Sequence record: SRR31156797_3857
Length of the DNA stretch: 42,778 bases
Strand: one strand, 5' to 3'
A program made the position numbers and the translations under genes. The notes beneath the pieces are model-generated. The model ran no database searches, was not told the DNA's origin, and saw only the letters and a list, made by a program, of their open reading frames with translations. Shown one piece after another: positions 24,423-41,411 of the stretch. Positions within the stretch are counted from its first letter, which is position 1. Each line of letters begins with the position of its first letter.

Positions 24423-25110
24423 AGCCATCCTTGCCTAATTCTGAAGTCATAAGTGCCAGTAAATTTTCTGGGGTGATTTCCTCTAAGGGATTTTGGTCAG
24501 CTATATCCGAGAGAGCCAATTCAGTCGCCCTCAAAACCTCAGCATTGGGTGACTTCAAGACTTTTTCCTGAATATTCTGTTCAAGGTTGGTCAGATCCGC
24601 TTTACTTGAGCCTTGAATCGTAAGTGCTGATACCTTTATCGCCAACCTGTACAGCAAACTTTGCCAGCCTCCCTGATTGTACTGCGTTTTGTATGCGGTA
24701 AATGTCTGAGTATCAGTCAGAACATTGCGAAACACTGACTCCAGCCCATTCTGTTCAACTATCAGCTGTAAAGCTTCCAGTTCATCAGACGTATAAGGTA
24801 AAACATGCTTTTTAAAGAAGTAACTATCCTCTTCTGCGTGATGTACCATTTTGCTGGTTTTCTCATTCAAACTTTCGGTCTGCCATACAATCAACAAGTT
24901 AATATTTTTCTCAAGTGCAGGGTCGACCGTCGTTTTCTTGCAGTCGCTCAGCCAATTTGCCTGAAGCTCAGGAGAAAGCTCTGGTTCACCATGAACCACT
25001 AGCCAGTAACCCGTTTTATCCGGCTCGCTGTATTCATACAACTCCAATTCAGTCAAAGCTTTTCGCTCCATCCTCTGCAATTCGAACAACTTTTCAATCA
25101 ACTTCTGCAT
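24406..25110 (-). CDS. lmuC: ABC-three-component middle component (LmuC-like)
   Basis: LEKNINLLIVW...AEEDSYFFKKHVLPY pattern typical of ABC-3C middle components; overlaps both neighbours. Confidence 0.7.
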   Translation of the reverse strand: MQKLIEKLFELQRMERKALTELELYEYSEPDKTGYWLVVHGEPELSPELQANWLSDCKKTTVDPALEKNINLLIVWQTESLNEKTSKMVHHAEEDSYFFKKHVLPYTSDELEALQLIVEQNGLESVFRNVLTDTQTFTAYKTQYNQGGWQSLLYRLAIKVSALTIQGSSKADLTNLEQNIQEKVLKSPNAEVLRATELALSDIADQNPLEEITPENLLALMTSELGKDGYELDC

Positions 25111-26392
25111 CTTTTAAGCTCTCAGGTACATTATTCAAAGAAACCAGCCCCACCTGTTGAAAACTGCCGATACTAGTTCCTATAATCGTTTCTTCTTCCG
25201 TGGCATCCACACCAATTTTCACACAAGTGATGGATGGCCTATCTATAGCACTGGTAATCAACGCCCCACACTCAAATAAGCATTCAACATCTTCCTCAAG
25301 TGCCTGTTGCAAAATATCATGGCAGACCACGTCTTGGTGTTCTGCTGCGGTATGAATCCCTGTTGGATAATAGAATCGACCGTCAACTTGCCATGCGAAA
25401 TGCACCCTTTCACTATCTGGTTTCTGCGCTTTAACCAACTTATGGAAAATTGTAAACAGCCCCTGCCTCATAGAGTCACGGTCAAGCGTTTGGTCCTTAA
25501 ACTCACTTAGTGTGGTAAATCGCCCTCTTCGATGTGGCATCGTTGCGCGAAGGAAAGCCTTCATACCTTGACTATCCAAGTCAGTGATTGTTGCTATGCA
25601 GTCATCTAACTTGGCGTATGCTGCTTGTGGTATCGTATCGTGCTGCTCGCAGAATTCTTGATAGTAAGCTCCAATATCAATCTGCAAGCGGCTAAGGAAA
25701 TACTCTTCATTGTTAAATCGCTCATAATCGTCAGCTTCCAGAATTTCATAGATATCCGAAAACTCGATAAACTCATTAGCTGCAATTGCTGTCTGGTTCC
25801 GATTTGATTGGTGTATTTGGTGATGTACCATGACAACTTTAGTGTTCACTATCGCTTCGAGGATCTCTCGGATTGAAGTGCAAAGCATTGCTTTCCAAGG
25901 AAACAAACAATCTACAACTGATATCATTTCCCTGATCTGAGCTTCAATATACCTATCAACCTCATCGAGTGGACAATAAAGCCTGGAATGCTCCTCATTT
26001 GCACCTGGTTGTAGTGGGTAGGGATACAACTCTACAGGTTGGTATTCCTGTTCGAATGATTCTGGTAGATCCGTTATTTCACGAGCGACATGAAAATATG
26101 CCGTCTGGATACCCCGTTCTGTGGCATTTTCCTTTTGGCTATTAATGCCTGCGCGATAGCCAGAGAACAACGTAGCCTTGTAAGCTTTGACTTGGTGCAA
26201 TGATAAGCACTGGTTTGCTCGAAAAATCGCAAAATCATCCTGACTTTCCAACTGCAGTTTAAGATCGCGATTCGCCTCATAGTCATTAGTCATTAGCCGA
26301 AGACAATGATACAGAGCGAGCTTTCCCTGATATACAAACCCACTCCATGTTGAAATCGCTGTATGAGGGTCGCTCTGGAGGTTTTGAGTCAT
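25094..26392 (-). CDS. lmuA: Lamassu LmuA-like effector: N-terminal Cap4/DUF4297-type PD-(D/E)xK endonuclease plus C-terminal domain
   Basis: AISTWSGFVYQG...LESQDDFAI...LHQVKAY restriction-fold catalytic motifs; ATG 26392 with SD AGGA. Confidence 0.78.
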   Translation of the reverse strand: MTQNLQSDPHTAISTWSGFVYQGKLALYHCLRLMTNDYEANRDLKLQLESQDDFAIFRANQCLSLHQVKAYKATLFSGYRAGINSQKENATERGIQTAYFHVAREITDLPESFEQEYQPVELYPYPLQPGANEEHSRLYCPLDEVDRYIEAQIREMISVVDCLFPWKAMLCTSIREILEAIVNTKVVMVHHQIHQSNRNQTAIAANEFIEFSDIYEILEADDYERFNNEEYFLSRLQIDIGAYYQEFCEQHDTIPQAAYAKLDDCIATITDLDSQGMKAFLRATMPHRRGRFTTLSEFKDQTLDRDSMRQGLFTIFHKLVKAQKPDSERVHFAWQVDGRFYYPTGIHTAAEHQDVVCHDILQQALEEDVECLFECGALITSAIDRPSITCVKIGVDATEEETIIGTSIGSFQQVGLVSLNNVPESLKDAEVD

Positions 26393-26497
26393 ATAATTTC
26401 CTGTCACCTAAAATCAGGGTCACCCACAAAGTACTCACGAGGTTTCGTAACGCCTTCGGAAAATAACTAACGAGCAAGTATCTAATATAATTAATAA

Positions 26498-26836: not shown

Positions 26837-28177
26837 TTAACTCTGATACTTATCCAGCTTGTTGTAGAGCGTTTTTATACTTATTCCTAAGTCCTCTGCT
26901 GTTTCTTTTTTGTTGCCTTCATTTTCTTCAAGAGTGTTAATAATGGCGGCTTTTTCTATTTCTTCTAAAGTCACACCAGCTGGCACTCTATCCTCTAATG
27001 TTGTCCCTGTTTCTAAAGGAGGAGTATCAAAAATTAGGTGTTCATCTTTAATCGTATCGTCCGCCAAAATGAACGCTCGCTCGACACAGTGTTTTAATTC
27101 TCTAACATTGCCAGGCCATGTATGCGCTGCGATTTTTTCGAGGGCTGAGGCTGTAATAGCTTTTGGAGCCGCTTCATCCGCATTCCGGTGAGCGATGAAA
27201 TGTTCAGCAAGGCCGACAATATCGCTACCTCGTTCTCTGAGAGGCGGAATATTGATAGGGAAGTGAGCTAATCTAAAATAGAGGTCTTCTCGTAAAAATT
27301 GCTCTTCAATAGCCACTTGTGGATCACGGTTGGTGGCGGCGATGATACGAGTGTTGGCAATACAGAGTGTGTTACTGCCGACTGGGCGATACTCGCCAGT
27401 TTCAAGAACTCGCAGTAGTTTAACTTGATGTTCAAGAGGCATTTCGGTGACCTCATCAAGAAACAATATCCCGCCCTCAGCTTGCTTAAAAACACCTTGG
27501 TGCGTTCGGTTGGCGCCTGTAAATGCTCCTTTTTCATGACCAAATAGTTCACTGTCGACTAACTCTGGGCTGATGGCGCCGCAGTTAATGGCAATAAAAG
27601 GCTGCTCCTTTCTATCACCGGCAAGGTGGATAGTCTGCGCGACGAGCTCTTTACCAGCACCGCTTTCACCAATGATCAATACGTTGGCCTCAGTTTTCGC
27701 CACTCGTCTGAGGGTGCGATACAAGTTATGCATTAGCCTTGAGGAGCCGACTAACATACCAAACTGGTCTAAGTCGCTTGTGGATATTTCTTTCCCCTCG
27801 CCCTGCTTTTCTAGGAAGTATTGACTAAAGTCCGCTAGCGTATCGGCCAGAATTTGGATATCTACCGGCTTTCTATAATGAAAAATGGCGCCACTTTTCA
27901 TCATCATGTCTAAATTCTTGTTGGGTGCACCGGAGCCGATGATGACCAAATCCAATTCTTCCAACCCAGTGGCACTGGATAGTGCGACAAAATCATCATT
28001 GGTGAATTGAGATACTTCAACAATGGCGGCATTGGGTTGAAGTCGTTGTAGGCTATCTATCCAGTGTTCGTTGTCATTATTGCTAATCGTATCAAATCGT
28101 GACAACTCCTCCAGAGAGCTTATTTGAGACAATAATTTCTGATCTTTCAACTCTACGAACAGTGTTGGTAATCCCAT
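26837..28177 (-). CDS. sigma-54-dependent enhancer-binding protein (degenerate receiver, AAA+, Fis-HTH)
   Basis: GESGAGKE, ELFGHEKGAFTGA, LFLDE, REDLYFRL, WPGNVREL and LGISIKTLYNKL motifs. Confidence 0.95.
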   Translation of the reverse strand: MGLPTLFVELKDQKLLSQISSLEELSRFDTISNNDNEHWIDSLQRLQPNAAIVEVSQFTNDDFVALSSATGLEELDLVIIGSGAPNKNLDMMMKSGAIFHYRKPVDIQILADTLADFSQYFLEKQGEGKEISTSDLDQFGMLVGSSRLMHNLYRTLRRVAKTEANVLIIGESGAGKELVAQTIHLAGDRKEQPFIAINCGAISPELVDSELFGHEKGAFTGANRTHQGVFKQAEGGILFLDEVTEMPLEHQVKLLRVLETGEYRPVGSNTLCIANTRIIAATNRDPQVAIEEQFLREDLYFRLAHFPINIPPLRERGSDIVGLAEHFIAHRNADEAAPKAITASALEKIAAHTWPGNVRELKHCVERAFILADDTIKDEHLIFDTPPLETGTTLEDRVPAGVTLEEIEKAAIINTLEENEGNKKETAEDLGISIKTLYNKLDKYQS

Positions 28178-28380
28178 GATTTAACTCTCTTTCAACAGTA
28201 GTGAGGGGGATGATAGCACAACAATAGTGAGAGAGATGACAGCACGAGGTATAAGGAATGAGAATGTATGGCTTTTCTTCCCCGGTTTTTGTGAATAATA
28301 CTGAGTGAATATTTAAAACAATAGATAAAAATTGGGAAATATTATTATTGTGTATCACTAATTCGGACGAGATAAATATT

Positions 28381-28440
28381 TATATTTTTTACAAACACTC
28401 CTTGTAAATTATTCATCCTCCATCATTGAAAATATTAACA
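28381..28440. promoter_or_regulatory. Candidate upstream activator (enhancer) sites
   Basis: TGTAAAAAATATA (minus strand, 28381-28393), TGTAAATTATTCA (28403-28415) and TGAAAATATTAACA (28427-28440). Confidence 0.5.
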
Positions 28441-28471
28441 GTATTTTCTATTTTCAACATAAATACTTTTA

Positions 28472-28484
28472 ATTCAATGAGTTG
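28472..28484 (+). promoter_or_regulatory. Candidate IHF site
   Basis: attcaatgagttg, a near match to WATCAANNNNTTR, between the UAS and the -24/-12 promoter. Confidence 0.45.
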
Positions 28485-28490
28485 TATTTC

Positions 28491-28506
28491 TGGCATGTGG
28501 TTTGCT
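28491..28506 (+). promoter_or_regulatory. sigma-54 (-24/-12) promoter of the osmY-like operon
   Basis: TGGCATGTGGTTTGCT with GG-N10-GC spacing. Confidence 0.85.
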
Positions 28507-28539
28507 CTAGTGATAATGCAAGTACAAAAAAGGAGATAA

Positions 28540-29091
28540 ATGATGAAAAACATTACAAGTAAAATTCTACTAACAACGGTTATTGCTACTTCTTCGTTTG
28601 CAGCGGTTGCAGATAACATGTGGAAAGAAGATACGTTAGATGCTTGGATTGATGGTAAAGCAGAAACGACACTATTACTTAACTCCAATTTGAACTCTTT
28701 TGATATTAACACTTATGTTAAAGACCAGGTTGTTACTTTAACGGGCTCAGTTGAGAACCAGACAGAAAAAGCCCTTGCCGAAGAATTATTATTAAGTCTT
28801 GATGATGTTAAGTCGGTAAAAAATGAACTTACGGTCATCGATAATGAAAAAGATAAAAATAAAGAATCAGTACAAGCCTTAACGGATACTAAAATAACGG
28901 CCATTGTTAAGACTCGACTATTATTTAATACGGAAGTAAGTGGTACTGATATCGAAGTGGAAACTAAGGAAAACACAGTAGTATTAAAGGGTTCAGTGAC
29001 GTCAGATACGGAACATGACCTTGCTCTATCTATTGCTCGTAATACATCCGATGTTGATAAAGTCATTGATAAACTTGAAGTGATTCAATAA
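28540..29091 (+). CDS. Periplasmic dual-BON domain protein (OsmY-like)
   Basis: Signal peptide; two BON repeats (DAWIDGK...VTLTGSV...[17 protein letters not shown]...VVLKGSV...VDKVIDKL); SD AAGGAG. Confidence 0.92.
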
Positions 29092-29123
29092 TAAATTTAC
29101 CAACAGATATAAGAGAGATCATT

Positions 29124-29294
29124 ATGCTTCGCTGGGCTTTAATATTTTTTATTCTTGCCATCATAGCAGCTTTATTTGGATTTGGTGGTATAGCAGGCGC
29201 TGCGGCAACAGTAGCTAAAGTTATGTTTTATATATTTGCTATTTCGTTGCTTGTATCGGTGGTAATGAATTTAGTTAACAAAAATAAGAGTTAG
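29124..29294 (+). CDS. DUF1328 (YtjA-like) small membrane protein, 56 aa
   Basis: Below the ORF-track cutoff. Manual translation: [38 protein letters not shown]...; osmY-ytjA adjacency. Confidence 0.9.
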
Positions 29295-29302
29295 GAGTTT
29301 TT

Positions 29303-29500
29303 ATGAATATCAGTACAGTTATTGTCCGTTTTCTATTGGCAACAGGTTTTGCTTTTACGCTTGCCGCATGTAGTGACGAGGGCCCCTTAGAACAAGCTGG
29401 TGAAAGAGCTGATGAAGCGGTAGAGGAAGCTCAAAATCAAATAGAGGACAGCTGTGAGAACGTGAAAGAGCAACTTGATACGGAAGATCAGGACTGCTAA
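29303..29500 (+). CDS. Small acidic lipoprotein
   Basis: Lipobox LAAC, then SDEGPLEQAGERADEAVEEA; SD AGGAG. Confidence 0.8.
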   Translation: MNISTVIVRFLLATGFAFTLAACSDEGPLEQAGERADEAVEEAQNQIEDSCENVKEQLDTEDQDC

Positions 29501-29567
29501 CAAAAGGCATTAACTCACGAATTAAATCATCCGAACCTCATAAAAAGAATTGAAGCAGGAGCTAGAT

Positions 29568-29996
29568 ATGAAAAACATATTTGATGTGCTTAAAGATAGC
29601 CATGAGAAGCAACGTCTTTTGATGGATGCGATACTCCAAACATCAGGTGATACTCAGGCCAGGCAAGAATTCTACTCCAGTCTTAAAGAAGAATTAACTA
29701 AGCATGCGGTCGCGGAAGAACGCCACTTCTATGCACCTTTAATAGAGAGCGATCAATCCGTTGATATGACTAGGCACGGTATCGCTGAACACCACGGTAT
29801 TGATAAGGTGCTTACTCAGCTTGATGACACCGACATGTCTTCACCAGCTTGGCTCACACTGATGAAGACACTTAAACACAAAGTAGAGCATCATTTAGAA
29901 GAAGAAGAGCAGCGTTTCTTTCAAACAGCTGGACGAGTTTTAGACTCAGATCAGAAAGAAACTTTGGCTCGAAAATATGAGCAAGAGATGGCTTGA
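29568..29996 (+). CDS. Hemerythrin/HHE cation-binding domain protein
   Basis: H..HAVAEE...EHH...HHLEEEE motifs; start MKNIF with SD AGGAG. Confidence 0.9.
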   Translation: MKNIFDVLKDSHEKQRLLMDAILQTSGDTQARQEFYSSLKEELTKHAVAEERHFYAPLIESDQSVDMTRHGIAEHHGIDKVLTQLDDTDMSSPAWLTLMKTLKHKVEHHLEEEEQRFFQTAGRVLDSDQKETLARKYEQEMA

Positions 29997-30049
29997 TTCG
30001 AAGTGTGACCTAAGCTTGGTCGTGAAGCGTAGGTTTTGGTTTAACAACT

Positions 30050-30076
30050 TGGGCCCATTTACGGGCCCACTTTTTT
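30050..30076 (+). terminator. Terminator after the hemerythrin gene
   Basis: tgggccc-atttac-gggccca-ctttttt. Confidence 0.75.
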
Positions 30077-30102
30077 AATACACAGAGAATTAAGGCCTCA
30101 CT

Positions 30103-31716
30103 ATGTTTATCGTTAAGTACTATATATTCATTGCTATCGCTTGTTTTTCTATAGCAGCATTTACCCCCAATGTATTACTCAGCTTACTATTGGTTTGGTC
30201 AGGTTTATCGATGTCTATCGTCAGCGCAGCCTATATCTTCGAGATACCATCAATATTTAGAAAAAAAAGTAATGGCAAAATAGCTTGGTGGATAAGATGG
30301 GCGTTTATTCCTTTTTTTCTGGGTATTCGTTTATACAATACTTGGGCGATTAAAAGAGACAAAGTCGAACCCATTCAGCAGGTGGCAGAAGGATTATATG
30401 TTTCCCGACGTCTACTCCCCTCCGATTTGTCATTTCTACAATCTCAAAATATAACGTGTATTGTTGATGTCACCGCAGAATTTGCGGGGTTAGAGAGTGC
30501 GATGACCAGCGAAGAGCTTCATTACCTCAATACCCCAGTACTCGACCATCAAGCCCCTAAGTTACGCAAGCTCAAACATGCTCTTAATTGGATAGATACT
30601 CAGATAAACCAATCAAGGTCCGTAGTTGTTCATTGTGCACTTGGACGTGGTCGCTCTGTGTTTGTAGTTGCAGCATACCTGTTAGCGAAAAATCCATCTC
30701 TGAGCGTGGAGCAAGTGCTAAAAAATATCAATGAAGTACGAAGCACTGCACGGTTGAACAGAAAGCAACTAAAGGTACTGAATGCTATCAGTGATAAGGG
30801 GCTACTCAATCTTGAAGAAAAATGCTGCCTAATTGCCAACCCTGTTGCAGGTGGAGGCAAATGGCAAACGAATGAGCAGCAGGTTATTCGAGAGCTCACC
30901 CGAAAGTTCAATTTAGACATAGTGACCACCAGTAAAGAAGTATCTGCGGAATCTCTAGCCAAACAAGCAAAAGCGCAAAATGCTTCTCATATCATCGTGT
31001 CTGGCGGAGACGGCACCGTCAGCGAGGTGGCAAGACAAATCGTGGGGACAGACACGGCACTCGGCATTATCCCATTGGGTACGGCAAATGCTTTATGCCA
31101 TGTGCTCTATGGTTTTGCGACAAAAGTGTCACCTGTTGAAAAGGCCTGCGAGGCTATTCTATCTGGCAAGTCTAAGAAAATGGATTTGGCGTACTGTAAC
31201 GATCAGCCAATACTGCTTATTCTTGGTATTGGGTTTGAAGAGAAGATGATTGATTACGCTCATCGTGAACAGAAAAATAAAAATGGCCAACTTGCTTACT
31301 TGTCCGGCTTATTTTCAGCGGTTGTGGCAGGAGAAAGTCAGTGGTTTGAAGTCACTAAAGATGGGGAGTCAACACGCGAAGCTGAATTACAAAGCTTAGT
31401 GGTTGCCAACACGTCGCCTTTTAGCACGGTCCTTGCTCAAGGGGGCAAAGAGCCAAGACCTGATGATGGTCTATTGCATATTACCTATTTAGAAAATACC
31501 GCTTCGCTTGGAGAAAGAGCTTTGGCGCTGTCTGATGTGTTGCTTTCAAGCTTAGGCCTCAAAGAACAAGCTTCATTTTTTGACTATGAGTCTGCAAAGC
31601 AAGTCAAAATAGACTCAAATCGATCGATCCACTATGTCATTGATGGAGAAAAGTTCTCTGCTGAATCACTTGAGATAAGCATCAAAAGCCAAGCTTTATC
31701 TGTTTGCATTCCATAG
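30103..31716 (+). CDS. Membrane-anchored dual-specificity phosphatase / diacylglycerol-kinase-family fusion
   Basis: N-terminal TMs; PTP loop HCALGRGRS (CX5R); DAGK motifs NPVAGG, GGDGTV, PLGTANAL, DDGLL and DGE. Confidence 0.88.
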   Translation: MFIVKYYIFIAIACFSIAAFTPNVLLSLLLVWSGLSMSIVSAAYIFEIPSIFRKKSNGKIAWWIRWAFIPFFLGIRLYNTWAIKRDKVEPIQQVAEGLYVSRRLLPSDLSFLQSQNITCIVDVTAEFAGLESAMTSEELHYLNTPVLDHQAPKLRKLKHALNWIDTQINQSRSVVVHCALGRGRSVFVVAAYLLAKNPSLSVEQVLKNINEVRSTARLNRKQLKVLNAISDKGLLNLEEKCCLIANPVAGGGKWQTNEQQVIRELTRKFNLDIVTTSKEVSAESLAKQAKAQNASHIIVSGGDGTVSEVARQIVGTDTALGIIPLGTANALCHVLYGFATKVSPVEKACEAILSGKSKKMDLAYCNDQPILLILGIGFEEKMIDYAHREQKNKNGQLAYLSGLFSAVVAGESQWFEVTKDGESTREAELQSLVVANTSPFSTVLAQGGKEPRPDDGLLHITYLENTASLGERALALSDVLLSSLGLKEQASFFDYESAKQVKIDSNRSIHYVIDGEKFSAESLEISIKSQALSVCIP

Positions 31717-31986
31717 TCACTGATGACAGCACCAACCATGAATGAAGGACATCACATCACCATGGAGATGAATCTCTCTTTACGTTGTTTGCTTGTCATT
31801 GTTAACCTCTGTTTGATTTAAGCCATTGCCATCACCCTAATTTTCAGTGCTTGTGATGTTTAGCGATGGCTTTTCTGTTTTTCGGCAGTACTCAATTCAT
31901 TCGACTTAGTAAGATCGGTATGAAACCATGCAAACACTGGTATTGTGAACGGTTAATCTGAGGGTACTTTGCAATGGGTCATTGAT

Positions 31987-32235
31987 GATCTTTACGCAAA
32001 AGGTGGTCAAATGTGGTACACGACAGACTACAATATTGTGGGTTTCAAAGGCAGTATAGAAGACGAAGGTGTATTCGCTGGCGCAGGTGTGGGTTTCAAA
32101 TTGACAGATCAATTCTTAATCAACGCTGAATATATGTGGTACGACGTAGACCTCAATGCAGAGAACGTTACGAATGGAGCAAGCACAGAAACAGATTTTA
32201 ACCAAGTGTCATTAGGTGTGGAATATCGATTCTAA
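31987..32235 (+). pseudogene. C-terminal remnant of an OmpA-type outer-membrane beta-barrel protein
   Basis: LYAKGGQMWY...GVFAGAGVGFKL...INAEYMWY...SLGVEYRF with terminal Phe; no signal peptide or N-terminal strands upstream. Confidence 0.7.
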
Positions 32236-32451
32236 TACGGATTACAGGGCTGAATTCACTAAATGGTTTTAAGCTCTTGATGTCTTTCATAGCAGTGCAG
32301 GAGCATACTTCTATGATTTATAATAAAAAGAAGACTCTGTCCTGTTTTTTTACACGAAGAAAAAATAATAGTAATGAAAAGCGTCAAGCCTATTTGCTTG
32401 ACGCTTTCTTATTATAGTCGCTCGCCCGGCAGTGGATAATATCGAACTAAA

Positions 32452-32862
32452 CTATAAATGCTTCGCCATTTCGTCATTTTCCACTTGTAATGCGGCAATC
32501 CAGTAAGAGAAGAATGATGACAGCTTTTGGTTGTTAAATGTTCCAATCGCACTTTTCAAATAGGTGATTAATTGTCGATTGCTTCTATACATTTCGTCGT
32601 AGCTGCTAATCACAACGGGCTGGCTTTCTTGCATTGAATGATTGATTTCTGACTTTAAATCAAGGATTTTAAGCTCAATTTCATTGATCATCGAACGCTC
32701 GACTTTTAAAAATCGACTAGCGGCTCTAGAGAGAGTTTGGTGCGTCCTGTACTCAACGAGCTGACAGCATGACTGATAATGCTCTTTAAGAGCGAATAAT
32801 ATTCTATCTATGCTTTGATAGTGCGTCGCGTCGAAAGTTCTATTGTGATTTTCCACCCACAT
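32452..32862 (-). CDS. Hypothetical helical protein (possibly degenerate ferritin-like four-helix bundle)
   Basis: Strong SD AAGGAG; 136 aa of amphipathic helices; hairpin at about 32380-32406 downstream. Confidence 0.6.
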   Translation of the reverse strand: MWVENHNRTFDATHYQSIDRILFALKEHYQSCCQLVEYRTHQTLSRAASRFLKVERSMINEIELKILDLKSEINHSMQESQPVVISSYDEMYRSNRQLITYLKSAIGTFNNQKLSSFFSYWIAALQVENDEMAKHL

Positions 32863-32974
32863 ATTGTTACTCCTTCTTGTTTAACCGTGTTCTCCATACC
32901 TGCGTAGAATTTAACCCTTCACCCCATTGATCATAAGTTATTAATCTAAATACAAAAACCCCCATTAATCGTCG

Positions 32975-33058
32975 TTATTTTTTGTCTCTATTCTGGCGCT
33001 TGCTTTGACAGTATTGCTTTGTCGTCAATGGTTTTTTGTTCCAGGTAGAGTTTGTCAT
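32975..33058 (-). CDS. Putative 27-aa basic peptide
   Basis: MTNSTWNKKPLTTKQYCQSKRQNRDKK with SD GAGGA; downstream of the minus-strand sigma-54 promoter. Confidence 0.35.
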   Translation of the reverse strand: MTNSTWNKKPLTTKQYCQSKRQNRDKK

Positions 33059-33338
33059 TTGCTCTTCCTCTGTTTCAATGCAGTATCGTCGAGCATTAAT
33101 GGTGTAGTTGTCCGGAATGAGCTTATGCGGTTTTGAAGGTCTTGAGATTGACTTTAGTTTTAACTCAACGCACTTCTTAATCGCATATATATCAAAAAGA
33201 ATTTTTTTGTAACTTTATTATCTACATTAGATATTTCTTTCTCTTAAATAATATTCTCACTTTCGTCCAAACTTATAACGGATGAAATTTTCATACTTAT
33301 CATAGTCACTCATTTAGATTTATAGGCAATAGAAATCA

Positions 33339-33354
33339 AGCATGTTACGTGCCA
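33339..33354 (-). promoter_or_regulatory. sigma-54 promoter (leftward)
   Basis: Minus strand TGGCACGTAACATGCT, GG-N10-GC. Confidence 0.7.
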
Positions 33355-33403
33355 AGTAAAATTGCCTCTACCCCCTAATTTATGGCAGAAATAAATGCAA
33401 TTT

Positions 33404-33447
33404 TGTAAAAGATACAATCTTCATGGTAAATGAGTGAAAATATTACA
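33404..33447. promoter_or_regulatory. Candidate shared enhancer sites between divergent sigma-54 promoters
   Basis: TGTAAAAGATACA (33404-33416) and TGAAAATATTACA (33435-33447). Confidence 0.55.
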
Positions 33448-33512
33448 TGAATTGCACTCTTTATATTACCGTAAAGCTCTCTAACACTATATACGGTAAG
33501 CTATTTTCAAGT

Positions 33513-33528
33513 TGGCATGATGTTCGCT
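33513..33528 (+). promoter_or_regulatory. sigma-54 promoter (rightward) for the yqjD-like operon
   Basis: TGGCATGATGTTCGCT, GG-N10-GC. Confidence 0.7.
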
Positions 33529-33607
33529 TAGCTTAGTGTAAGAAGTGATAGTTAATTTTGAATGATCACTTTATTTTCTCTCATTAGATAAGTTAAGGAG
33601 ATTACGT

Positions 33608-33856
33608 ATGCCAAATGCAAATACTAAAAAAACTGATCCTAAGCAACAGGCCGAAGATATTTATGAAGAGGCAGAAGAGGTTGCTTCAGAAGCAATAAAA
33701 AATGTTAAAAATACCGTTCAAGAGACGCTCGAAGCAGGGTCTGAAACTGTAAAAAATAAAACAGAGCAGGCTGAAAACATGATTAAAGAGCGCCCACTCT
33801 TGAGCGTTGGATGCGCATTTCTTGCAGGCTGGGCTATTTCTAAGCTAATCAAATAA
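33608..33856 (+). CDS. DUF883 / ElaB-YqjD-like tail-anchored protein
   Basis: Charged helical N-terminus; C-terminal IKERPLLSVGCAFLAGW anchor; SD AAGGAG. Confidence 0.8.
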   Translation: MPNANTKKTDPKQQAEDIYEEAEEVASEAIKNVKNTVQETLEAGSETVKNKTEQAENMIKERPLLSVGCAFLAGWAISKLIK

Positions 33857-33884
33857 ATTTGAATGATGCACGAAGAGGAAAGTT

Positions 33885-34361
33885 ATGCAGTCTAATGACA
33901 CCAACGACGCACACAATGAGCCTCAACATCGAGAAGCGGAGCTTTTAGAACGAGCGGTCGTTCAATTAAGGGGGCTTTTAAAAGACCTAACCGCATTCCA
34001 ATCTCACACTCAACAGTGGTCAATGTCGATTTTTGAGCTGTTTACTTTGGAGTTGCGCAACACGGTTGCCGCGAGTAAAAAACTCATTGTCATTAAACTC
34101 CTCTTCGTTGCACTGCTGCCGATGTTTCTTATTAGCATCGCCGTCGGTGTTGGGGTTGTAGGGTACTACTTTACCTTGAACCTTTTAGTGGGCTATAGCG
34201 CTTTCATTGCAGCGTTCAGCGTTATCCTGGTGCTCTTGGTACTCGGCAGCAGGTATTGCAAGCAATTTGTGGGTTTTGAATATACCAAAGAGCAGCTCGG
34301 GAGGTTGTGTCATGCGATCAATGAAAAAACGACAGCGGAAAATTCTAATGAAAAGGCTTGA
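33885..34361 (+). CDS. YqjE-like (holin-X superfamily) two-TM membrane protein
   Basis: FELFTLELR motif followed by two TMs; located after the yqjD-like gene. Confidence 0.65.
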   Translation: MQSNDTNDAHNEPQHREAELLERAVVQLRGLLKDLTAFQSHTQQWSMSIFELFTLELRNTVAASKKLIVIKLLFVALLPMFLISIAVGVGVVGYYFTLNLLVGYSAFIAAFSVILVLLVLGSRYCKQFVGFEYTKEQLGRLCHAINEKTTAENSNEKA

Positions 34362-34563
34362 GTGTGATAGTAAAGCTCGTCAAGTTGCACTCAGCATGGG
34401 ACTGCTCTACTTCAAAGGAAAAAGCTTTGTACAGCAATCCCCATTTCTTGCGGCAGGGTTTGCTGCGCTCGGTATGTTCGCCCTTAGCAAAGTCAAAAAT
34501 CTCAAGACGCTTTTTTATGGTTATAAACAAGCACGTCTATTAATTTATTCACTTGATAGATAA
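34312..34563 (+). CDS. Small basic membrane protein, positional YqjK-like
   Basis: Start MRSMKKRQRK after SD GGGAGG; overlaps the previous gene; one hydrophobic segment. Confidence 0.55.
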   Translation: MRSMKKRQRKILMKRLECDSKARQVALSMGLLYFKGKSFVQQSPFLAAGFAALGMFALSKVKNLKTLFYGYKQARLLIYSLDR

Positions 34564-34584
34564 TTAATAATAGATAGTTAATAG

Positions 34585-34645
34585 GTTCTGGCTTAGTTAT
34601 CAATGTAGTTATTCACTATTAAATTTAGTGTGACTAAGCCAGAAC
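34585..34645. repeat. 13-bp perfect inverted repeat with a 35-nt spacer
   Basis: GTTCTGGCTTAGT (34585-34597) / ACTAAGCCAGAAC (34633-34645). Confidence 0.7.
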
Positions 34646-34670
34646 TGGATCTTAATATCTGAGGAACATA

Positions 34671-35699
34671 ATGAACAGTAAACAAGAGAATATATTAAAA
34701 TACAGTTTAATGACCATTGCTCTTATAATAATGTTCATTTTCATATTACATGTTGCTAAACCGTTTTTGTTGCCCGTTTTTTTTGGCGCTTTTATTTCAC
34801 TTCTATGTGGCCCGTTAGTCAATCGATTAGTTCGTTTTGGAATTCCCCGTGTCATTAACGTTATCACTGTTTTATTAGGGCTCGTTAGCTTCGTTGTATT
34901 GAGTTTAAGTCTGTTAAGTGAGCCTGCTCAGCAGTGGTGGTCTAAGCTGCCAATGTTAATTCAGAATGTTTCTAATGAAGTCAGTGAAGCTGCTGAAAGT
35001 AGTGAGTTAGGTGGCAAGGGTGACTTCACTCTCAGTAGCACAGTGCCTAACGATGGACTCACAAGCAATACCTCATTTTCCATCATTAAATCAGTGCTAA
35101 CTACAACTCCAACGATAGTTACACAATTAATGGTCGCTCTTTTTATGGCGTACTTCATGATGAGTTATGGCCGCCAGATATATTCTCAAAGCTTATCTTT
35201 GTTCACACGATTTTCCGATAAACGCAAGGTGGTTGAGCTTGTGAAGGTGGTTCAAACCGATCTTTCTCGATATATAAGCTCTATTACGATCATCAATGTG
35301 TGCTTAGGAGTGGTTGTTGGCTGTGTATTCTACATGATGGGATTAAAAGACCCGTTTCTGTGGGGAGCATTTGCTGGTTTGATGAATTATATCCCTTATC
35401 TTGGGCCAATGGTTTCGGTGACCTGTTTTGCCTTGGTTTCCTTTTTGCAGTTTGAGTCTCTAAGTTACTCATTGACCGTTGCTTCGCTCTTTTTGGCTAT
35501 CAACCTTATAGAGAGTCAATTGGCGACTCCGACTCTGCTTGGTAAGAGATTTAGTTTAAACCCTCTAATTTTGTTTGTGTGGTTAGTCTTTTGGGGGTGG
35601 TTATGGGGAGCAATGGGAATGCTGATGGGAGGGCCTATGCTAGTACTTGCTAATGTTGTTCTAAGTAAAAGTAAGTCGCCCTCAAATTATGATCTATAG
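34671..35699 (+). CDS. AI-2E family transporter
   Basis: About 8 TM; LMNYIPYLGP, IESQLATP.LLGKRFSLNP and WGWLWGAMG motifs. Confidence 0.92.
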   Translation: MNSKQENILKYSLMTIALIIMFIFILHVAKPFLLPVFFGAFISLLCGPLVNRLVRFGIPRVINVITVLLGLVSFVVLSLSLLSEPAQQWWSKLPMLIQNVSNEVSEAAESSELGGKGDFTLSSTVPNDGLTSNTSFSIIKSVLTTTPTIVTQLMVALFMAYFMMSYGRQIYSQSLSLFTRFSDKRKVVELVKVVQTDLSRYISSITIINVCLGVVVGCVFYMMGLKDPFLWGAFAGLMNYIPYLGPMVSVTCFALVSFLQFESLSYSLTVASLFLAINLIESQLATPTLLGKRFSLNPLILFVWLVFWGWLWGAMGMLMGGPMLVLANVVLSKSKSPSNYDL

Positions 35700-35744
35700 A
35701 CAACGAAAGGCCCTGTTAGTTTTTAAGGCTCAACCCTCACCGCT

Positions 35745-36344
35745 TTGAAGGATAAAGCTTTCATGGTTAACAAACTGAAGCGAAAAACCAAAGACCTGAT
35801 TGAGTCTAACAATATTTTGGGCGGTGTTTTCACTGCCTCTCTTCTTGAATCTACGATTGTACCTATTCCATTGGAAGCATTGCTTGTTCCACTGTTGCAT
35901 AAACGACGCGATAAAGTTTGGCAACTCGCACTTATGGCGACTCTAGGCTGCATTGTCGGCGCACTGTTGGGGTATGCGCTTGGTTACTACATTTTCGAAC
36001 TACTTCATGATTGGGTAGTCTCCAACTGGATAACAGAACAGCGATTGGATACTGTCATGTTACGGATAAAAACCGAGGGCTTCTGGTTTGTGATGACCTT
36101 AGGCATCGCACCCATCCCTTTCCAAATTGCAATGTTAGCAGCAGGGTCTACTCATTTTTCGCTCCCTTTATTTCTACTCGCTACAGGCTTATCTCGTGCC
36201 ATTAGGTACTTTGGTATCGCGTTGGTAGTCTATATAGCCGGCCATAAAGCAGAAGAATTGATAAAAAGATATAAAGTTGCAACATTAGGTCTTATAACGT
36301 TGGTATTGATAGTCGCCTGGTATCTGAGTACGAGTGGTAGATAG
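35745..36344 (+). CDS. DedA/YqaA (VTT domain) membrane protein
   Basis: LESTIVPIPLEALL, GALLGYALG, PIPFQIAML and SRAIRYF motifs; start uncertain (35745 TTG or 35763 ATG). Confidence 0.88.
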   Translation: MKDKAFMVNKLKRKTKDLIESNNILGGVFTASLLESTIVPIPLEALLVPLLHKRRDKVWQLALMATLGCIVGALLGYALGYYIFELLHDWVVSNWITEQRLDTVMLRIKTEGFWFVMTLGIAPIPFQIAMLAAGSTHFSLPLFLLATGLSRAIRYFGIALVVYIAGHKAEELIKRYKVATLGLITLVLIVAWYLSTSGR

Positions 36345-37420: not shown

Positions 37421-37771
37421 CTATTCGAAAATCGGGGCGTCGTAATCTGTCGCTTCATCGGTGTAAGCTGTGACGATTGCGTCTTCCACCAGTCCGGATT
37501 CAGCCTTCACCTGAGTCTCAAAAAAGTCTTTAATCTGCTTTCTGTTACCGTGCGCTGCCCATGCGTCAGCGTCTTTCCAAATCTCATTGAACACGATTGG
37601 GTAATCGTTGCTAACGGCACTTGGATGATCAATCTGACGGGTCACCGTATATTGAACGCATCCTTCTTCACGGTATGAATCCGGTTCTAAGGCTTTTAAC
37701 ACTTCGAATAATTCCGCTTCTTTACCTGCTTTAGGTTTGAACTGGGCAATTACATATACACGTTTTGTCAT
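37421..37771 (-). CDS. Antibiotic-biosynthesis-monooxygenase (ABM) family protein
   Basis: VIAQFKPKAGKE...REEGCVQY...FNEIWKD...AAH pattern. Confidence 0.85.
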   Translation of the reverse strand: MTKRVYVIAQFKPKAGKEAELFEVLKALEPDSYREEGCVQYTVTRQIDHPSAVSNDYPIVFNEIWKDADAWAAHGNRKQIKDFFETQVKAESGLVEDAIVTAYTDEATDYDAPIFE

Positions 37772-38011
37772 CGTTCTATTCTTCTCAAAATAAATGTCGC
37801 TGGCATACTACCAGTATTTTACGCATTTAGTCGTATCAACTCTGCGTTCAATCCCCTATTCATTAATCTAGATTAAGTTTTCTAGTAGTCAGATTCGTTA
37901 ACATCTCGGCATTGTTTCTCGAAAGTCCTAAATATTCAAATCACCTAGCTGGTGATGATCCTTATTTGCTCTAAGAGATGTTCACTGACCACAATTAACG
38001 AGGAGTTAGGT

Positions 38012-39124
38012 GTGAGTGATTTATTTTCACAAAGCCGCATCGGTAACATGGTGTTAAAAAACCGATTTGTACGCAGTGCGACTTGGGAGAACATGGCGAC
38101 GGAAGATGGCCACATGACCGATAAGCTTTACGCTATCTATGAAGAACTCGCAAAAGGCGAAGTTGGTCTTATCGTCACTGGTTATGCCAACATTGTAGAA
38201 GAGGAAAAACCCAACGCAGGTATGATGGGCATCTACAATGACTCCTTCATTGATGAGTATTCAAAGCTGACGGAACAAGTTCACCAATACGGCGCTAAAA
38301 TCGTTATGCAAATTGCCTATGGTGGAACGAAAACCACCTATAACGTTGGCGAACGCGTTATTTTTGCCCCTAGTAATGTGTGTGAGAAAAGCACTCAGAC
38401 TCAAGGCAAAGAAATGACTAAAGATGAGATTACTTACATCGTCAACGCGTTTGCCGATGCTAGCCTAAGAGCAAAGAAAAGTGGCTTTGATGGTGTAGAA
38501 ATTCACGCCGCACATACCTACCTCATTAATCAATTTCTCAGTCCATACTACAACCAACGTACAGACGAATACGGCGGTAGTTTAGAAAATCGAATGCGCT
38601 TCCTGCTTGAGATAGTCAGCGAGACTAGAAAGTTAGTCGGTGAAGACTTTCCTATTCTTATTAAGCTAACCGCCACTGAGTTTTTTGACGGGGGCTTAAC
38701 CTTTGAAGAAACCCGAACTATCTGTAAAACTCTCGAACAGATTGGTGTCGATGCACTGATCATTTCCGGCAACATCCACGGTAAAGCCAACACGATGATC
38801 GGTGAAAGCTTTGATGGACATAAGATTCAGGATGAAGGTTTTTTCCATGAGTATGGTGCAGTGATCAGTGAAGAGGTCAAGATTCCGGTGATTACTGTCG
38901 GCGGATTAACTGACATTAACGCCATAGAATCTTTAGCGGAAAATACCAATATTCAATACTTTGCCTTATCTAGACCACTTTTATCTGAGCCATGTCTAAT
39001 CAAGCGCTGGATGGAAGGAAACCGCGAGCCCGCGGTTTGTGAAACTTGCTCGAAATGTCGAACAAAGCGTGGCAACTTCTGCGTAACCAATAAAGACAGA
39101 AAACGAGAACTAGCGAAGCTTTAA
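38012..39124 (+). CDS. NADH:flavin oxidoreductase (old yellow enzyme family) with a C-terminal Cys cluster
   Basis: LKNRFVRSAT, GFDGVEIHAAHTYL..QFLSP..N.RTDEYGGSLENR and CETCSKC...C motifs; GTG start after SD GAGGAG. Confidence 0.92.
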   Translation: MSDLFSQSRIGNMVLKNRFVRSATWENMATEDGHMTDKLYAIYEELAKGEVGLIVTGYANIVEEEKPNAGMMGIYNDSFIDEYSKLTEQVHQYGAKIVMQIAYGGTKTTYNVGERVIFAPSNVCEKSTQTQGKEMTKDEITYIVNAFADASLRAKKSGFDGVEIHAAHTYLINQFLSPYYNQRTDEYGGSLENRMRFLLEIVSETRKLVGEDFPILIKLTATEFFDGGLTFEETRTICKTLEQIGVDALIISGNIHGKANTMIGESFDGHKIQDEGFFHEYGAVISEEVKIPVITVGGLTDINAIESLAENTNIQYFALSRPLLSEPCLIKRWMEGNREPAVCETCSKCRTKRGNFCVTNKDRKRELAKL

Positions 39125-39188: not shown

Positions 39189-40451
39189 TCAAGAAGCTTT
39201 ATCTGAACCAACGACTTGAGAGCCGTCTTTCGCTTCAGACTGTTCAATTTTGTCATCGTTTTCAGCATTTTCTCTGAATAGCTCTGCAACGCTGGTGCGC
39301 TCCAGAGTTCCTTTCAGATTGCCTTCTTCATCAACAACTGGAAGGGAGTAATCACTTGACATACTGTCCGTCAATACCGTTTCAATTGCAGCATCCGGCG
39401 AGATAACCGCAACCTCTTCATATATTTCTTCACTAATATGTTGTGAGCCTTTGGAATGGTCATCCACCGCTTGTTCCAAGGCATCTTGAGTCAGAATACC
39501 TTGATAACCTTCTTCCGTTACATGGTAAGCATAATCGTGCTTCGAACGCTTCATTTGTTGTAAAGCTTCATCGATGGTTTTCGCTGTAATACGGTATGAA
39601 GGTGGCAGCATTACTGTTTCAACCGTCAGAGCTCTCGCACGGTTTACGTCTTTAACGAAGGCTTCTACATAATCGTCCGCCGGATTAAGCAGAATGTCAT
39701 CTGGCGTCCCTTGCTGAACCAGAACACCATCTTTGAGAATGGCAATCCTGTCACCCAAACGCAACGCTTCATCCAAATCATGAGTAATAAAGATAATCGT
39801 TTTTTGCAGTTTACTTTGCAGCTCGATCAACTGATCTTGCATTTCACTGCGAATGAGCGGATCTAGTGCCGAGAACGCTTCGTCCATTAACAGGATTTCT
39901 GCGTCAGTACATAATGCTCGAGCTAAACCGACACGCTGCTGCTGACCACCAGATAGTTGTGAAGGAAACTGTTGCTCATAACCTTTTAATCCAACAGCCT
40001 CCAACCACTCAGACGCTTTTTCAAGGCGCTTTTCTTTAGGAGTCCCCTGAATTTCTAAGCCATAGGCGACATTATCAACCACGGTACGATGAGGTAACAA
40101 ACCAAAGCGTTGGAATACCATCGACATTTTATGACGTCGAAACTCTTCCAACTCTTTTTGAGACAAGCTCATCACATCAATACCTTCAACCAATATCTTA
40201 CCCTCTGTTGGGTCAATCAAACGGTTGAAGTGACGAATCATTGTCGATTTGCCTGAGCCAGACAGCCCCATAATGACGAATATCTCGCCTTTATGTATTT
40301 CCAAGTTAATATCTTTTAAACCAACGGTATGTCCCGTTTCAGCTAAAACATCTTCTTTGTTTTTACCCTGTTTAACCTGGTCTAAAACGGATAGTGGCTT
40401 TTCACCGAAGATTTTATACAGGCCACTAATACTAATTAGGGGTTTAGTCAT
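39189..40451 (-). CDS. proV: Glycine betaine/proline ABC transporter ATP-binding subunit
   Basis: GEIFVIMGLSGSGKST, LSGGQQQRVGLARAL, LMDEAFSALDPLIR and C-terminal CBS-like region. Confidence 0.93.
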   Translation of the reverse strand: MTKPLISISGLYKIFGEKPLSVLDQVKQGKNKEDVLAETGHTVGLKDINLEIHKGEIFVIMGLSGSGKSTMIRHFNRLIDPTEGKILVEGIDVMSLSQKELEEFRRHKMSMVFQRFGLLPHRTVVDNVAYGLEIQGTPKEKRLEKASEWLEAVGLKGYEQQFPSQLSGGQQQRVGLARALCTDAEILLMDEAFSALDPLIRSEMQDQLIELQSKLQKTIIFITHDLDEALRLGDRIAILKDGVLVQQGTPDDILLNPADDYVEAFVKDVNRARALTVETVMLPPSYRITAKTIDEALQQMKRSKHDYAYHVTEEGYQGILTQDALEQAVDDHSKGSQHISEEIYEEVAVISPDAAIETVLTDSMSSDYSLPVVDEEGNLKGTLERTSVAELFRENAENDDKIEQSEAKDGSQVVGSDKAS

Positions 40452-41337: not shown

Positions 41338-41360
41338 AATTGTGATTTCCTTTTTTCAAA

Positions 41361-41381
41361 CCCGGCACATCATGTGCCGGG
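41361..41381 (-). other. Intercistronic stem-loop between proX and proW (mRNA stabiliser)
   Basis: cccggcacat-c-atgtgccggg. Confidence 0.6.
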
Positions 41382-41411
41382 ACGAAACTTGTTGCCGATG
41401 TTTAGGTGTGG

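Follow-up and report, generated by a model that had tools for sequence, protein, structure and literature searches.

We analyzed a stretch of 42,778 nucleotides from sequence record SRR31156797_3857 (hereafter the window; all coordinates are positions of this full stretch). Between positions 26837 and 36344 it carries a block in which the gene of a sigma-54 activator is divergent from genes coding for a two-BON protein, a DUF1328 protein, a lipoprotein and a hemerythrin-domain protein, followed by a phosphatase-lipid kinase fusion and by a second divergent unit. A reading made from the letters of the DNA (the sequence-only reading) had taken this block for a portable, self-contained general stress or dormancy module with its own sigma-54 activator. 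The list of open reading frames (ORFs) and Pfam and NCBIfam scans bore out its gene list for the activator and the osmY-like, ytjA-like, lipoprotein, hemerythrin and fusion genes, each of which lies where it had been placed. The genes and predicted control sites of the block are as follows.

26837-28177, minus strand: sigma-54 activator of 446 aa (Pfam Sigma54_activat, 222.6 bits; AAA_lid_14; HTH_8, 56.6 bits)
28388-28437, plus strand: upstream element 1, the inverted repeat TTTACAA-N7-TTGTAAA (TTAC-N11-GTAA) together with TGAAAATATTA, 102 nt before the -24 box
28491-28505, plus strand: candidate promoter P1 (TGGCAT-N5-TTGC), TGGCATGTGGTTTGC, 35 nt before the BON start codon
28540-29091, plus strand: two-BON protein, periplasmic, of OsmY-like architecture (PF04972, 111.3 bits, two stretches)
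29124-29294, plus strand: DUF1328 small membrane protein (PF07043, 47.2 bits versus a cut-off of 27; NF010226, 71.5 versus 59)
29303-29500, plus strand: acidic lipoprotein of 65 aa with an LAAC lipobox, read in the translation
29550/29568-29996, plus strand: hemerythrin-domain protein (PF01814, 58.8 bits)
30050-30076, plus strand: terminator-like GC hairpin with a T run in the gap between the hemerythrin and fusion genes
30103-31716, plus strand: membrane-anchored fusion of a DSP-phosphatase and a DAGK-type lipid kinase, PRK12361 family (NF009025, 750.7 bits versus 505)
32452-32862, minus strand: 136-aa protein, intact gene, no Pfam match
32967-33303, minus strand: DUF2383 (four-helix-bundle) gene, broken, with tblastn pieces in frames -2, -1 and -3
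33304-33607: second divergent control region
33354-33340, minus strand: candidate promoter P2 (TGGCAC-N5-ATGC), TGGCACGTAACATGC, about 36 nt before the start codon, directed at the broken DUF2383 gene and at that of the 136-aa protein
33401-33445, plus strand: upstream element 2, common to the divergent P2 and P3, TTTTGTAAAAGATACAAT together with TGAAAATATTA
33513-33527, plus strand: candidate promoter P3 (TGGCAT-N5-TTCGC), TGGCATGATGTTCGC, 81 nt before the ElaB-like start codon
33608-33856, plus strand: 82-aa hydrophilic protein with a C-terminal membrane anchor, ElaB/YqjD-like by sub-threshold family matches
33885-34361, plus strand: 158-aa membrane protein, possible YqjE/holin-X relative (sub-threshold)
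34312-34563, plus strand: small conserved basic/hydrophobic ORF in the position of E. coli yqjK, conserved in five other loci
34671-35699, plus strand: AI-2E family transporter (PF01594, 158.9 bits)
35745-36344, plus strand: VTT/DedA-family membrane protein, the last gene of the module (PF09335, 49 bits versus a cut-off of 33.9)

The translation of the BON gene starts with a signal-peptide-like stretch, and the hemerythrin gene likely starts at the ATG at 29568, as judged from the ribosome-binding site and ATG read in the sequence. In a comparison of fetched loci, the lipoprotein gene was found beside the DUF1328 or fusion gene elsewhere too. The fusion belongs to the PRK12361 family, and the NF009025 match spans model positions 4-540 of 546; Pfam DSPc and DAGK_cat were both matched, and the motifs HCALGRGRS (HCX5R) and GGDGT read in its translation are invariant in the alignment of orthologs. 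Where ElaB-like genes are present, the AI-2E gene comes after them in most of the loci. The gap between the small ORF and the AI-2E gene (34585-34648) contains a long hairpin, GGTTCTGGCTTAGT ... ACTAAGCCAGAAC, with a 13-bp stem, a loop of about 38 nt and no T run, which may be a processing or attenuation site.

The activator consists of an N-terminal domain (residues ~1-127), an AAA+ domain with the GAFTGA motif and a Fis-type helix-turn-helix (HTH). Its AAA+ core is intact and of the sigma-54 activator type: GESGAGKE, GAFTGA and ILFLDEV are read in the translation, and the PF00158 match spans positions 1-167 of 168. The HTH occupies residues 403-444 (PF02954, 56.6 bits). All NCBIfam activator equivalogs scored far below their cut-offs with this protein. 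Its first 140 residues matched no Pfam family, and a sequence profile of the N-terminal domain gave nothing significant against solved structures (best E = 0.045; receiver domains at 0.3-0.4). An AlphaFold model of this domain (9 orthologs, pLDDT 82.6) predicts a (beta-alpha)5 fold followed by a long helix, residues 107-129. Foldseek returned 91 matches to the model at E <= 0.001; among the matches listed, most were receiver domains, and the pseudo-receivers CikA and the N-terminal domain of CpaE were also present. In the alignment of orthologs, the acceptor position is occupied by E54 in the activator and by G in two of eight orthologs, the acidic pair (DD) after beta1 is absent, and the beta5 Lys is not conserved, while GxPNxxLDxxM and HxRxP are invariant. 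A Pfam scan detected no histidine-kinase domain among the proteins of the cluster itself. The acidic pocket, acceptor Asp and partner kinase of NtrC-type response regulators were therefore all missing from the cluster. Because the modeled fold is CheY-like and both the acceptor Asp and the acidic pair are lacking, the N-terminus is a pseudo-receiver, which would not be phosphorylatable at the usual Asp.

This domain defines a small family, with 20 matches at E <= 0.001 among 1.84 billion representative proteins. A search for its relatives gave 66 matches, whose source names are almost all Vibrio, with a few Shewanella. Domains with 94-98% identity occur under several Vibrio species names and one Shewanella, and one is on a plasmid of V. 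pelagius. The activator represents a new subfamily of pseudo-receiver activator. When the whole activator was used as the query for related loci, only generic sigma-54 activators were retrieved, because conserved AAA+ peptides dominate the patterns, and this query was discarded. In the 22 loci scanned for it (the window, L081 and L116-L135), the activator gene itself had no reported sigma-54 site upstream. The leader upstream of the gene harbors a 26-nt tandem duplication (28193-28244), of which alignment shows a single copy in V. pelagius. In another locus (L120; G685:C1, ~4318001-4319000), the activator seems to be broken, its N-terminal domain lying in a 146-aa open frame and the remainder aligning separately, with 70% coverage.

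To locate sigma-54 promoters, we scanned for TGGCAC-N5-TTGC with at most two mismatches. The three -24/-12 motifs that the sequence-only reading had claimed at 28491 (+), 33354 (-) and 33513 (+) were all there, with 1, 1 and 2 mismatches, respectively, to TGGCAC-N5-TTGCW; with GG and GC doublets 10 nt apart and a gene downstream, they qualify as sigma-54 promoter sequences. The number of matches in the window was at chance level (44, versus 40.5 expected in shuffles), and the argument must therefore rest on position and conservation. A chance-level count is what would be seen if the motifs were look-alikes in AT-rich intergenic DNA, with sigma-70 or sigma-S promoters being used and the activator controlling something else. 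A sigma-70-like hexamer pair at 28490-28517, which overlaps P1, also fits that explanation, but its -10 hexamer is not conserved in V. pelagius.

Position and conservation were assessed in 36 loci of other genomes, 20 of them comprising ~20 kb around the fusion gene and 16 chosen for the activator N-terminal domain. In the first 20 loci, 20 GG-N10-GC sites were located 15-150 nt upstream of cluster genes (63 upstream windows), when 1.9 were expected; kinship among the loci inflates the Poisson probability of 4e-14, and those counted include the near-duplicates L118/L119, L132/L135/L167 and window/L081. Such sites preceded the BON gene in 7 of 9 cases, the ElaB-like gene in 5/5, the DUF1328 gene in 4/5, the hemerythrin gene in 3/9, the lipoprotein gene in 0/9 and the fusion gene in 1/18; the two BON sites absent from this count were found by a whole-genome pattern search. 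The second set of 16 loci gave 15/16 for BON, with TGGCAC-N5-TTGA in the sixteenth, and 9/9 for the ElaB-like gene. Altogether, a GG-N10-GC site precedes BON in 24 of 25 loci of other genomes, and all 14 loci with the ElaB-like gene have one ahead of it. The promoter positions are kept in loci whose proteins are only 40-60% identical. P2 is conserved in V. pelagius, and equivalent sites exist in L158, L162 and L169. Alignment of the promoters gave TGGCAC..T..T.GC as the BON consensus and TTGGCATG...TTCGC as that of the ElaB-like gene; written out, the latter (P3) reads TTGGCATGnnnTTCGC. A strict consensus for integration host factor (IHF) was found within 75 nt upstream of 6 of 29 cluster promoters and of none in the window. 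A looser, IHF-like A/T element is visible beside the -24 box in the aligned promoters.

Two specific elements lie upstream of the promoters, ~75-140 nt before the -24 box. The inverted repeat of element 1 (TTTACAAACACTCCTTGTAAA, 28388-28408) is identical in V. pelagius. The pattern TTAC-N9-11-GTAA occurs 90-114 nt before the T of the -24 box in 17 of 29 cluster promoters, versus 55 occurrences in 443 kb, and it also precedes 12 of 15 further BON promoters in the second set of loci. Element 2 consists of blocks that are conserved with V. pelagius. The 12-mer GTARAARnTACA within it was found 14 times in 761.5 kb of fetched DNA (both strands), 13 times at 76-140 nt upstream of an ElaB-like promoter; its single occurrence in the window is at 33405, and the loci that carry it are L081, L132-L135 and L157-L168. 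The two control regions are linked by a 33-nt direct repeat, D1 (28405-28437 and 33413-33445, 73% identity), and the exact TGAAAATATTA is present in the window at 28427 and 33435 only. Near P3, a perfect 8-nt inverted repeat, TTACCGTA-N18-TACGGTAA, was dismissed as it is not conserved in V. pelagius.

The composite of element and promoter, TTAC-N9-11-GTAA-N70-98-TGGCA-N8-GC, has a single match in the window. Searched against the whole genomes of five relatives, it gave 18 matches, 9 of which are inside the cluster, compared with 6 matches for the reversed control. The concentration of matches in the cluster indicates that the regulon looks local, in agreement with the earlier description of the module as self-contained. 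Together with the conservation of motif positions between loci with such divergent proteins and the specific upstream elements, this concentration means that an origin of the motifs by chance is already disfavored, and we consider it extremely unlikely.

Some RNA evidence was available as assembled contigs from four runs; small shares of their words matched, and stretches without coverage are not informative. Contigs 90-99% identical to module genes came from one RNA-Seq run and from two runs labeled metatranscriptomic but probably made of DNA, belonging to two studies. Three contigs begin at 28528, 28531 and 28532, i.e., 23-27 nt after the -12 GC of P1, and no contig of these three runs covers 28135-28481. 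In a fourth run, of unrecorded library type, contigs do cover 28135-28481. The contig starts near P1 hint only weakly at a transcript start and do not map one.

The link between the activator and the rest of the block was assessed in a sample of 401 genomes from the order of Paraglaciecola marina. The fusion family is present in 50 of these genomes and the activator N-terminal domain in 31. Both occur together in 23 genomes, and in 22 of them the two genes lie within ~6 kb of each other (Fisher P = 3e-17). In a class-wide sample the fusion was found in 1 of 400 genomes, that of the center genome itself. The activator adjoins the fusion in 10 of the first 20 fusion loci; the other 10 genomes yielded one clear activator copy elsewhere and one weak match (E = 7e-6). 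Therefore, the fusion also exists without this activator. Sequence clusters of the activator and fusion, with 881 and 1687 members, carry mostly the name V. parahaemolyticus, and a further cluster of 418 that of V. alginolyticus. The module was also found in the cold-water genera Colwellia, Psychromonas, Paraglaciecola, Thalassotalea and Pseudoalteromonas. Orthologs of the 136-aa protein are present in L158, L162, L169 and L172. Another arrangement of the cluster was observed in L116 (6857-7408, minus strand) and L123 (12227-12778, plus strand), where a 183-aa DUF2383-like gene lies between the activator and BON genes. The scores of these two genes, 24.4 and 16.7 bits, fall short of the 30.8-bit cut-off, and no sigma-54 site was found upstream of either.

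A megablast search against plasmids revealed the whole block on two V. pelagius plasmids (L081 and L082), with 84% identity restricted to window positions 26844-36281. The flanks differ: LysR and aspartate kinase genes border the block on the V. pelagius plasmids, and a Lamassu-like/ABC-3C defense system and small membrane proteins do so in the window. That the block travels as a unit is shown by its sharp homology borders, the difference in flanks and the copies on plasmids. The marks of a genomic island or mobile element were lacking, as we found no tRNA gene that could be a target, no flanking repeats and, by Pfam on the flanking ORFs scanned, no integrase domain. Of the proposed portability, what stands is thus the mobility that is apparent from the plasmid copies, borders, flanks and activators 94-98% identical across species, and what does not is any integrase, tRNA or repeat signature.

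Directly upstream of the module, a three-gene Lamassu-like/ABC-3C defense system occupies 22068-26407 on the minus strand and codes for an SMC-like ATPase (PADLOC LmuB, 218.9 bits), MComp1 and a CTD1/LmuA-like protein (70.7 bits). This adjoining system suggests that the module sits in a variable region. On the other side, an ABM monooxygenase gene (37421-37771) and an NADH:flavin oxidoreductase gene (37952-39124) lie downstream of the module, the latter type also being found near the module on one V. pelagius plasmid. A few kb downstream, at 39189-42401 on the minus strand, are the genes of a glycine-betaine-type ABC transporter (an ATPase with a CBS domain, a permease and an OpuAC binding protein).

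Compared with its V. pelagius counterpart, the copy in the window shows partial decay, with frameshifts in the DUF2383 gene and the loss of an MscS-family gene that is annotated in L081 and L082. The intact DUF2383 gene of V. pelagius itself scores 29.8 bits, against a cut-off of 30.8. The following features mark the site of the lost gene.

31782-32376: unrelated DNA in place of the V. pelagius MscS-family gene (blastn homology break at 31781/32377)
31969-32235: outer-membrane beta-barrel fragment, OmpA-like C-terminal half (OMP_b-brl model positions 102-175 only)
32377-32408: bidirectional terminator at the end of the DNA that replaces the MscS gene

With the DUF2383 gene in three frames, P2 leads into a pseudogene and then into the intact 136-aa gene. 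Thus, the promoter reported at 33354 (-) has its motif, but the first gene behind it has at least two frameshifts. Alternatively, the module of this strain might be a decaying, silent remnant with inherited promoters and genes, its circuit dead because key parts are lost or because the activator never becomes active. The broken DUF2383 gene, the deleted and replaced MscS gene, the duplication in the leader of the activator gene and the neighboring defense system as a sign of a variable region would all be in line with such a fate. However, the ORF of the activator and a further 11 are undamaged, V. pelagius and the window share conserved promoter and upstream-element sequences, and RNA-library contigs 90-99% identical to module genes exist, which is no proof of transcription. 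We therefore hold a dead circuit to be very unlikely.

Regarding the cargo, the BON, DUF1328, hemerythrin, AI-2E, VTT/DedA and PRK12361 assignments pass curated cut-offs. The BON protein has the architecture of OsmY and scores 66 bits with the OsmY equivalog NF007858 (cut-off, 174). The hemerythrin protein scores 56.9 bits with the PA2171 family, NF053874 (cut-off, 190). For the 82-aa protein, the NCBIfam ElaB model gave 18.4 bits versus 139 (E = 0.0023), and a comparison with E. coli YqjD gave E = 4e-4 by BLASTP over the tail region; hhalign gave E = 0.016. As a lead from Atlas, 22 of the 30 named clusters nearest to this protein are DUF883 (score, 0.91), and Pfam DUF883 had no match to it at E <= 10. 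Identification of the 158-aa protein as YqjE was not supported: it scores 12.9 bits with PF07332 and its orthologs 24.4 and 23.2, against a cut-off of 28.4 and 75.8 for E. coli YqjE, with no alignment by BLASTP and E = 0.25 by hhalign. Identification of the small ORF as YqjK, which it resembles only in position and size, was likewise unsupported (no PF13997 match at E <= 10; BLASTP not significant; hhalign E = 0.18). BLASTP of the DedA protein against E. coli YqjA was not significant. For the second divergent unit, the AI-2E and DedA genes of the earlier description are thus confirmed, the likeness to yqjE and yqjK is unsupported, and that to elaB/yqjD is weak. The 136-aa protein is possibly a second ferritin-like DUF2383/DUF6306 relative, a lead that comes from Atlas scores of 0.86-0.89, under the 0.9 line.

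In E. coli, osmY and ytjA are sigma-S dependent; we take YtjA to belong to the DUF1328 family. In the available part of a preprint (10.1101/2024.08.16.608256), YqjD, ElaB and YgaM are described as RpoS-controlled, membrane-anchored ribosome-hibernation factors, and the polar location of YqjD is linked with phosphatidic-acid-rich membrane. For P. aeruginosa PA2171, the accessible text of one study describes binding to the ribosome and FtsZ, repression of translation and FtsZ polymerization, and promotion of persisters (PMC13041383), and that of another describes PA2171 and its neighbors as biofilm induced (PMC9262955). By analogy, the cargo points to putative functions in envelope or osmotic protection, together with translation and growth arrest, a role played in E. 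coli by sigma-S-dependent genes. The general stress or RpoS-like character of the module is an inference, because it comes from family resemblance only; that resemblance reaches the cut-offs for DUF1328 and for the BON and hemerythrin domains and falls short of them for OsmY, PA2171, ElaB, YqjE and YqjK.

With the same wiring of local activator and sigma-54, the module might instead be a narrow system for osmotic or membrane-lipid adaptation and no general regulon for stress or dormancy. In that case, the fusion, MscS, DedA, AI-2E and BON proteins would adjust the envelope after osmotic or membrane perturbation, whereas the roles of the ElaB-like and hemerythrin proteins would lie in the membrane or in redox reactions and have nothing to do with ribosome hibernation. 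The best-conserved core of the module (activator, BON, lipoprotein, DUF1328 and fusion) is in keeping with this, as many loci lack the hemerythrin gene and the ElaB-like unit. The occurrence of MscS-family genes in several versions, the glycine-betaine-type transporter downstream in the window, and the ElaB and PA2171 scores below cut-off also fit. On the other hand, ElaB-like genes have a conserved sigma-54 promoter in 14 of 14 loci, and the BON string of Vibrio-type loci includes the hemerythrin gene. We regard such a narrower role, in the membrane or in osmotic adaptation, as a serious rival, albeit an unlikely one.

Taken together, we judge with a probability of about 70% that the ~9.5-kb block is a discrete, horizontally movable module forming its own small sigma-54 regulon. 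The proposal of a module with its own sigma-54 activator is strongly supported by the intact motifs, promoters in register in orthologous loci, upstream elements, and linkage of activator and cluster. The analysis establishes the gene content, the motifs with their conservation and linkage, and the pseudo-receiver fold; from these we infer sigma-54 dependence in vivo, binding of the elements by the activator, the operon extents and a stress function.

Several points weigh against this interpretation. Besides the chance-level motif count in the window, the relatedness of the counted loci and the partial decay of this copy, the strict TTAC-N9-11-GTAA is missing at P2 and P3. The element types also differ in geometry, with TTAC-N11-GTAA at BON promoters and GTAAAAGATACA at ElaB-like promoters, and binding of both by one activator is assumed. 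A terminator-like hairpin precedes the fusion gene, for which no separate sigma-54 motif was seen. As it is the final gene of the DUF1328/lipoprotein/hemerythrin string in other loci, with gaps of 37-155 nt, it is probably cotranscribed with that string, though less surely so in the window because of the hairpin. Homology to OsmY, ElaB, YqjE, YqjK and PA2171 fails the curated cut-offs throughout. Finally, the portion of a V. parahaemolyticus delta-rpoN RNA-seq report available to us (PMC9817140) names genes for flagella, type VI secretion system 2 (T6SS2), nitrogen and formate, along with a few hypothetical proteins, and none of the families of the module.

The sequence-only reading knew of no characterization of such a module in Vibrio. 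The open-access literature likewise yielded no paper on a sigma-54 regulon of this kind, absence there being no proof, and none of the terms OsmY, hemerythrin and diacylglycerol appears in Francke et al. 2011 (PMC3162934).

In the regulon that we favor, the orphan enhancer-binding protein would bind the upstream elements ~100 nt before P1 and P3 and ~50-90 nt from P2, with element 2 serving both divergent promoters P2 and P3. Using ATP, it would open sigma-54 RNA polymerase complexes at the three -24/-12 promoters. P1 would drive the BON, DUF1328, lipoprotein and hemerythrin genes, probably with transcription reading on into the fusion gene. P2 would drive the DUF2383 gene, broken here, and that of the 136-aa protein, and P3 those of the ElaB-like tail-anchored protein, the membrane protein, the small ORF, the AI-2E transporter and the DedA protein. 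Presumably, the pseudo-receiver would sense the signal with its conserved alpha4-beta5-alpha5 face (GxPNxxLDxxM...HxRxP), via a ligand or a partner protein.

A further-reaching proposal, which we offer tentatively as it is quite unlikely, is that of a transferable, sigma-54-gated dormancy cassette whose pseudo-receiver activator senses the state of the membrane, possibly via the lipid phosphatase/kinase fusion, its nearly constant genetic neighbor. Lipid remodeling towards phosphatidic-acid-rich domains would recruit the tail-anchored ElaB-like protein as a ribosome silencer, the hemerythrin protein would halt translation and division, and the BON, DedA and AI-2E proteins would protect the envelope. 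If this were true, marine bacteria would be using plasmids and chromosome-2 islands to swap a ready-made alternative to the RpoS growth-arrest route.

As a rule, sigma-54 regulons serve nitrogen, flagella, secretion or a few envelope responses. Under the local regulon that we propose, OsmY-, ElaB- and hemerythrin-type proteins, which in E. coli are textbook sigma-S cargo, would fall under tight off/on control by an ATP-dependent activator. The module is present in widely studied species such as V. parahaemolyticus, and its predicted promoters, upstream elements and activator are defined to the base, which makes the question directly testable. It may offer a handle on the persistence and survival of marine vibrios, and a natural example of a stress regulon traveling as one piece.

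The closest parallel in cargo is with the E. coli osmY, elaB, yqjD, ygaM and ytjA genes, as the same protein types recur: a periplasmic two-BON protein, a DUF1328 protein, and a hydrophilic, C-tail-anchored protein with a membrane protein and a small ORF behind it, DedA being nearby. The gene order of the module echoes that of the E. coli yqjA-mzrA-yqjC-yqjDEK neighborhood. Unlike those sigma-S genes, the module has promoters of the -24/-12 type with a dedicated activator, and sequence similarity is weak.

In the PA2134-PA2190 region of P. aeruginosa, a hemerythrin protein and a DUF2383 four-helix protein, presumably PA2169, occur together, as in the module. The paper on that region (PMC9262955) reports no sigma-54 link, and the term "RpoN" is absent from it. 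PA2146 had been considered as a DUF1328 relative; this link was dropped, since its homologs carry a KGG repeat according to the same text.

In terms of regulators, the architecture of the activator is that of FleQ and FlrA, in which a receiver-like domain without the acceptor Asp is followed by AAA+ and HTH domains. In contrast to these proteins, its N-terminus has no match to the Pfam FleQ domain, and its putative targets are not flagellar. Psp (PspF-pspABCDE) and ZraSR-zraP are sigma-54-dependent envelope stress units with an activator gene divergent from the target operon, upstream elements and a small local regulon, and in these respects the module is predicted to be likewise organized. 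The activator scores 266.6 with PspF (cut-off, 443.6) and 259.9 with ZraR (cut-off, 760) and is therefore neither, and the cargo differs too. PspF lacks an N-terminal domain and ZraR has a true phospho-receiver with a kinase, whereas the activator of the module has a pseudo-receiver, with no kinase-family match among the proteins of its cluster.

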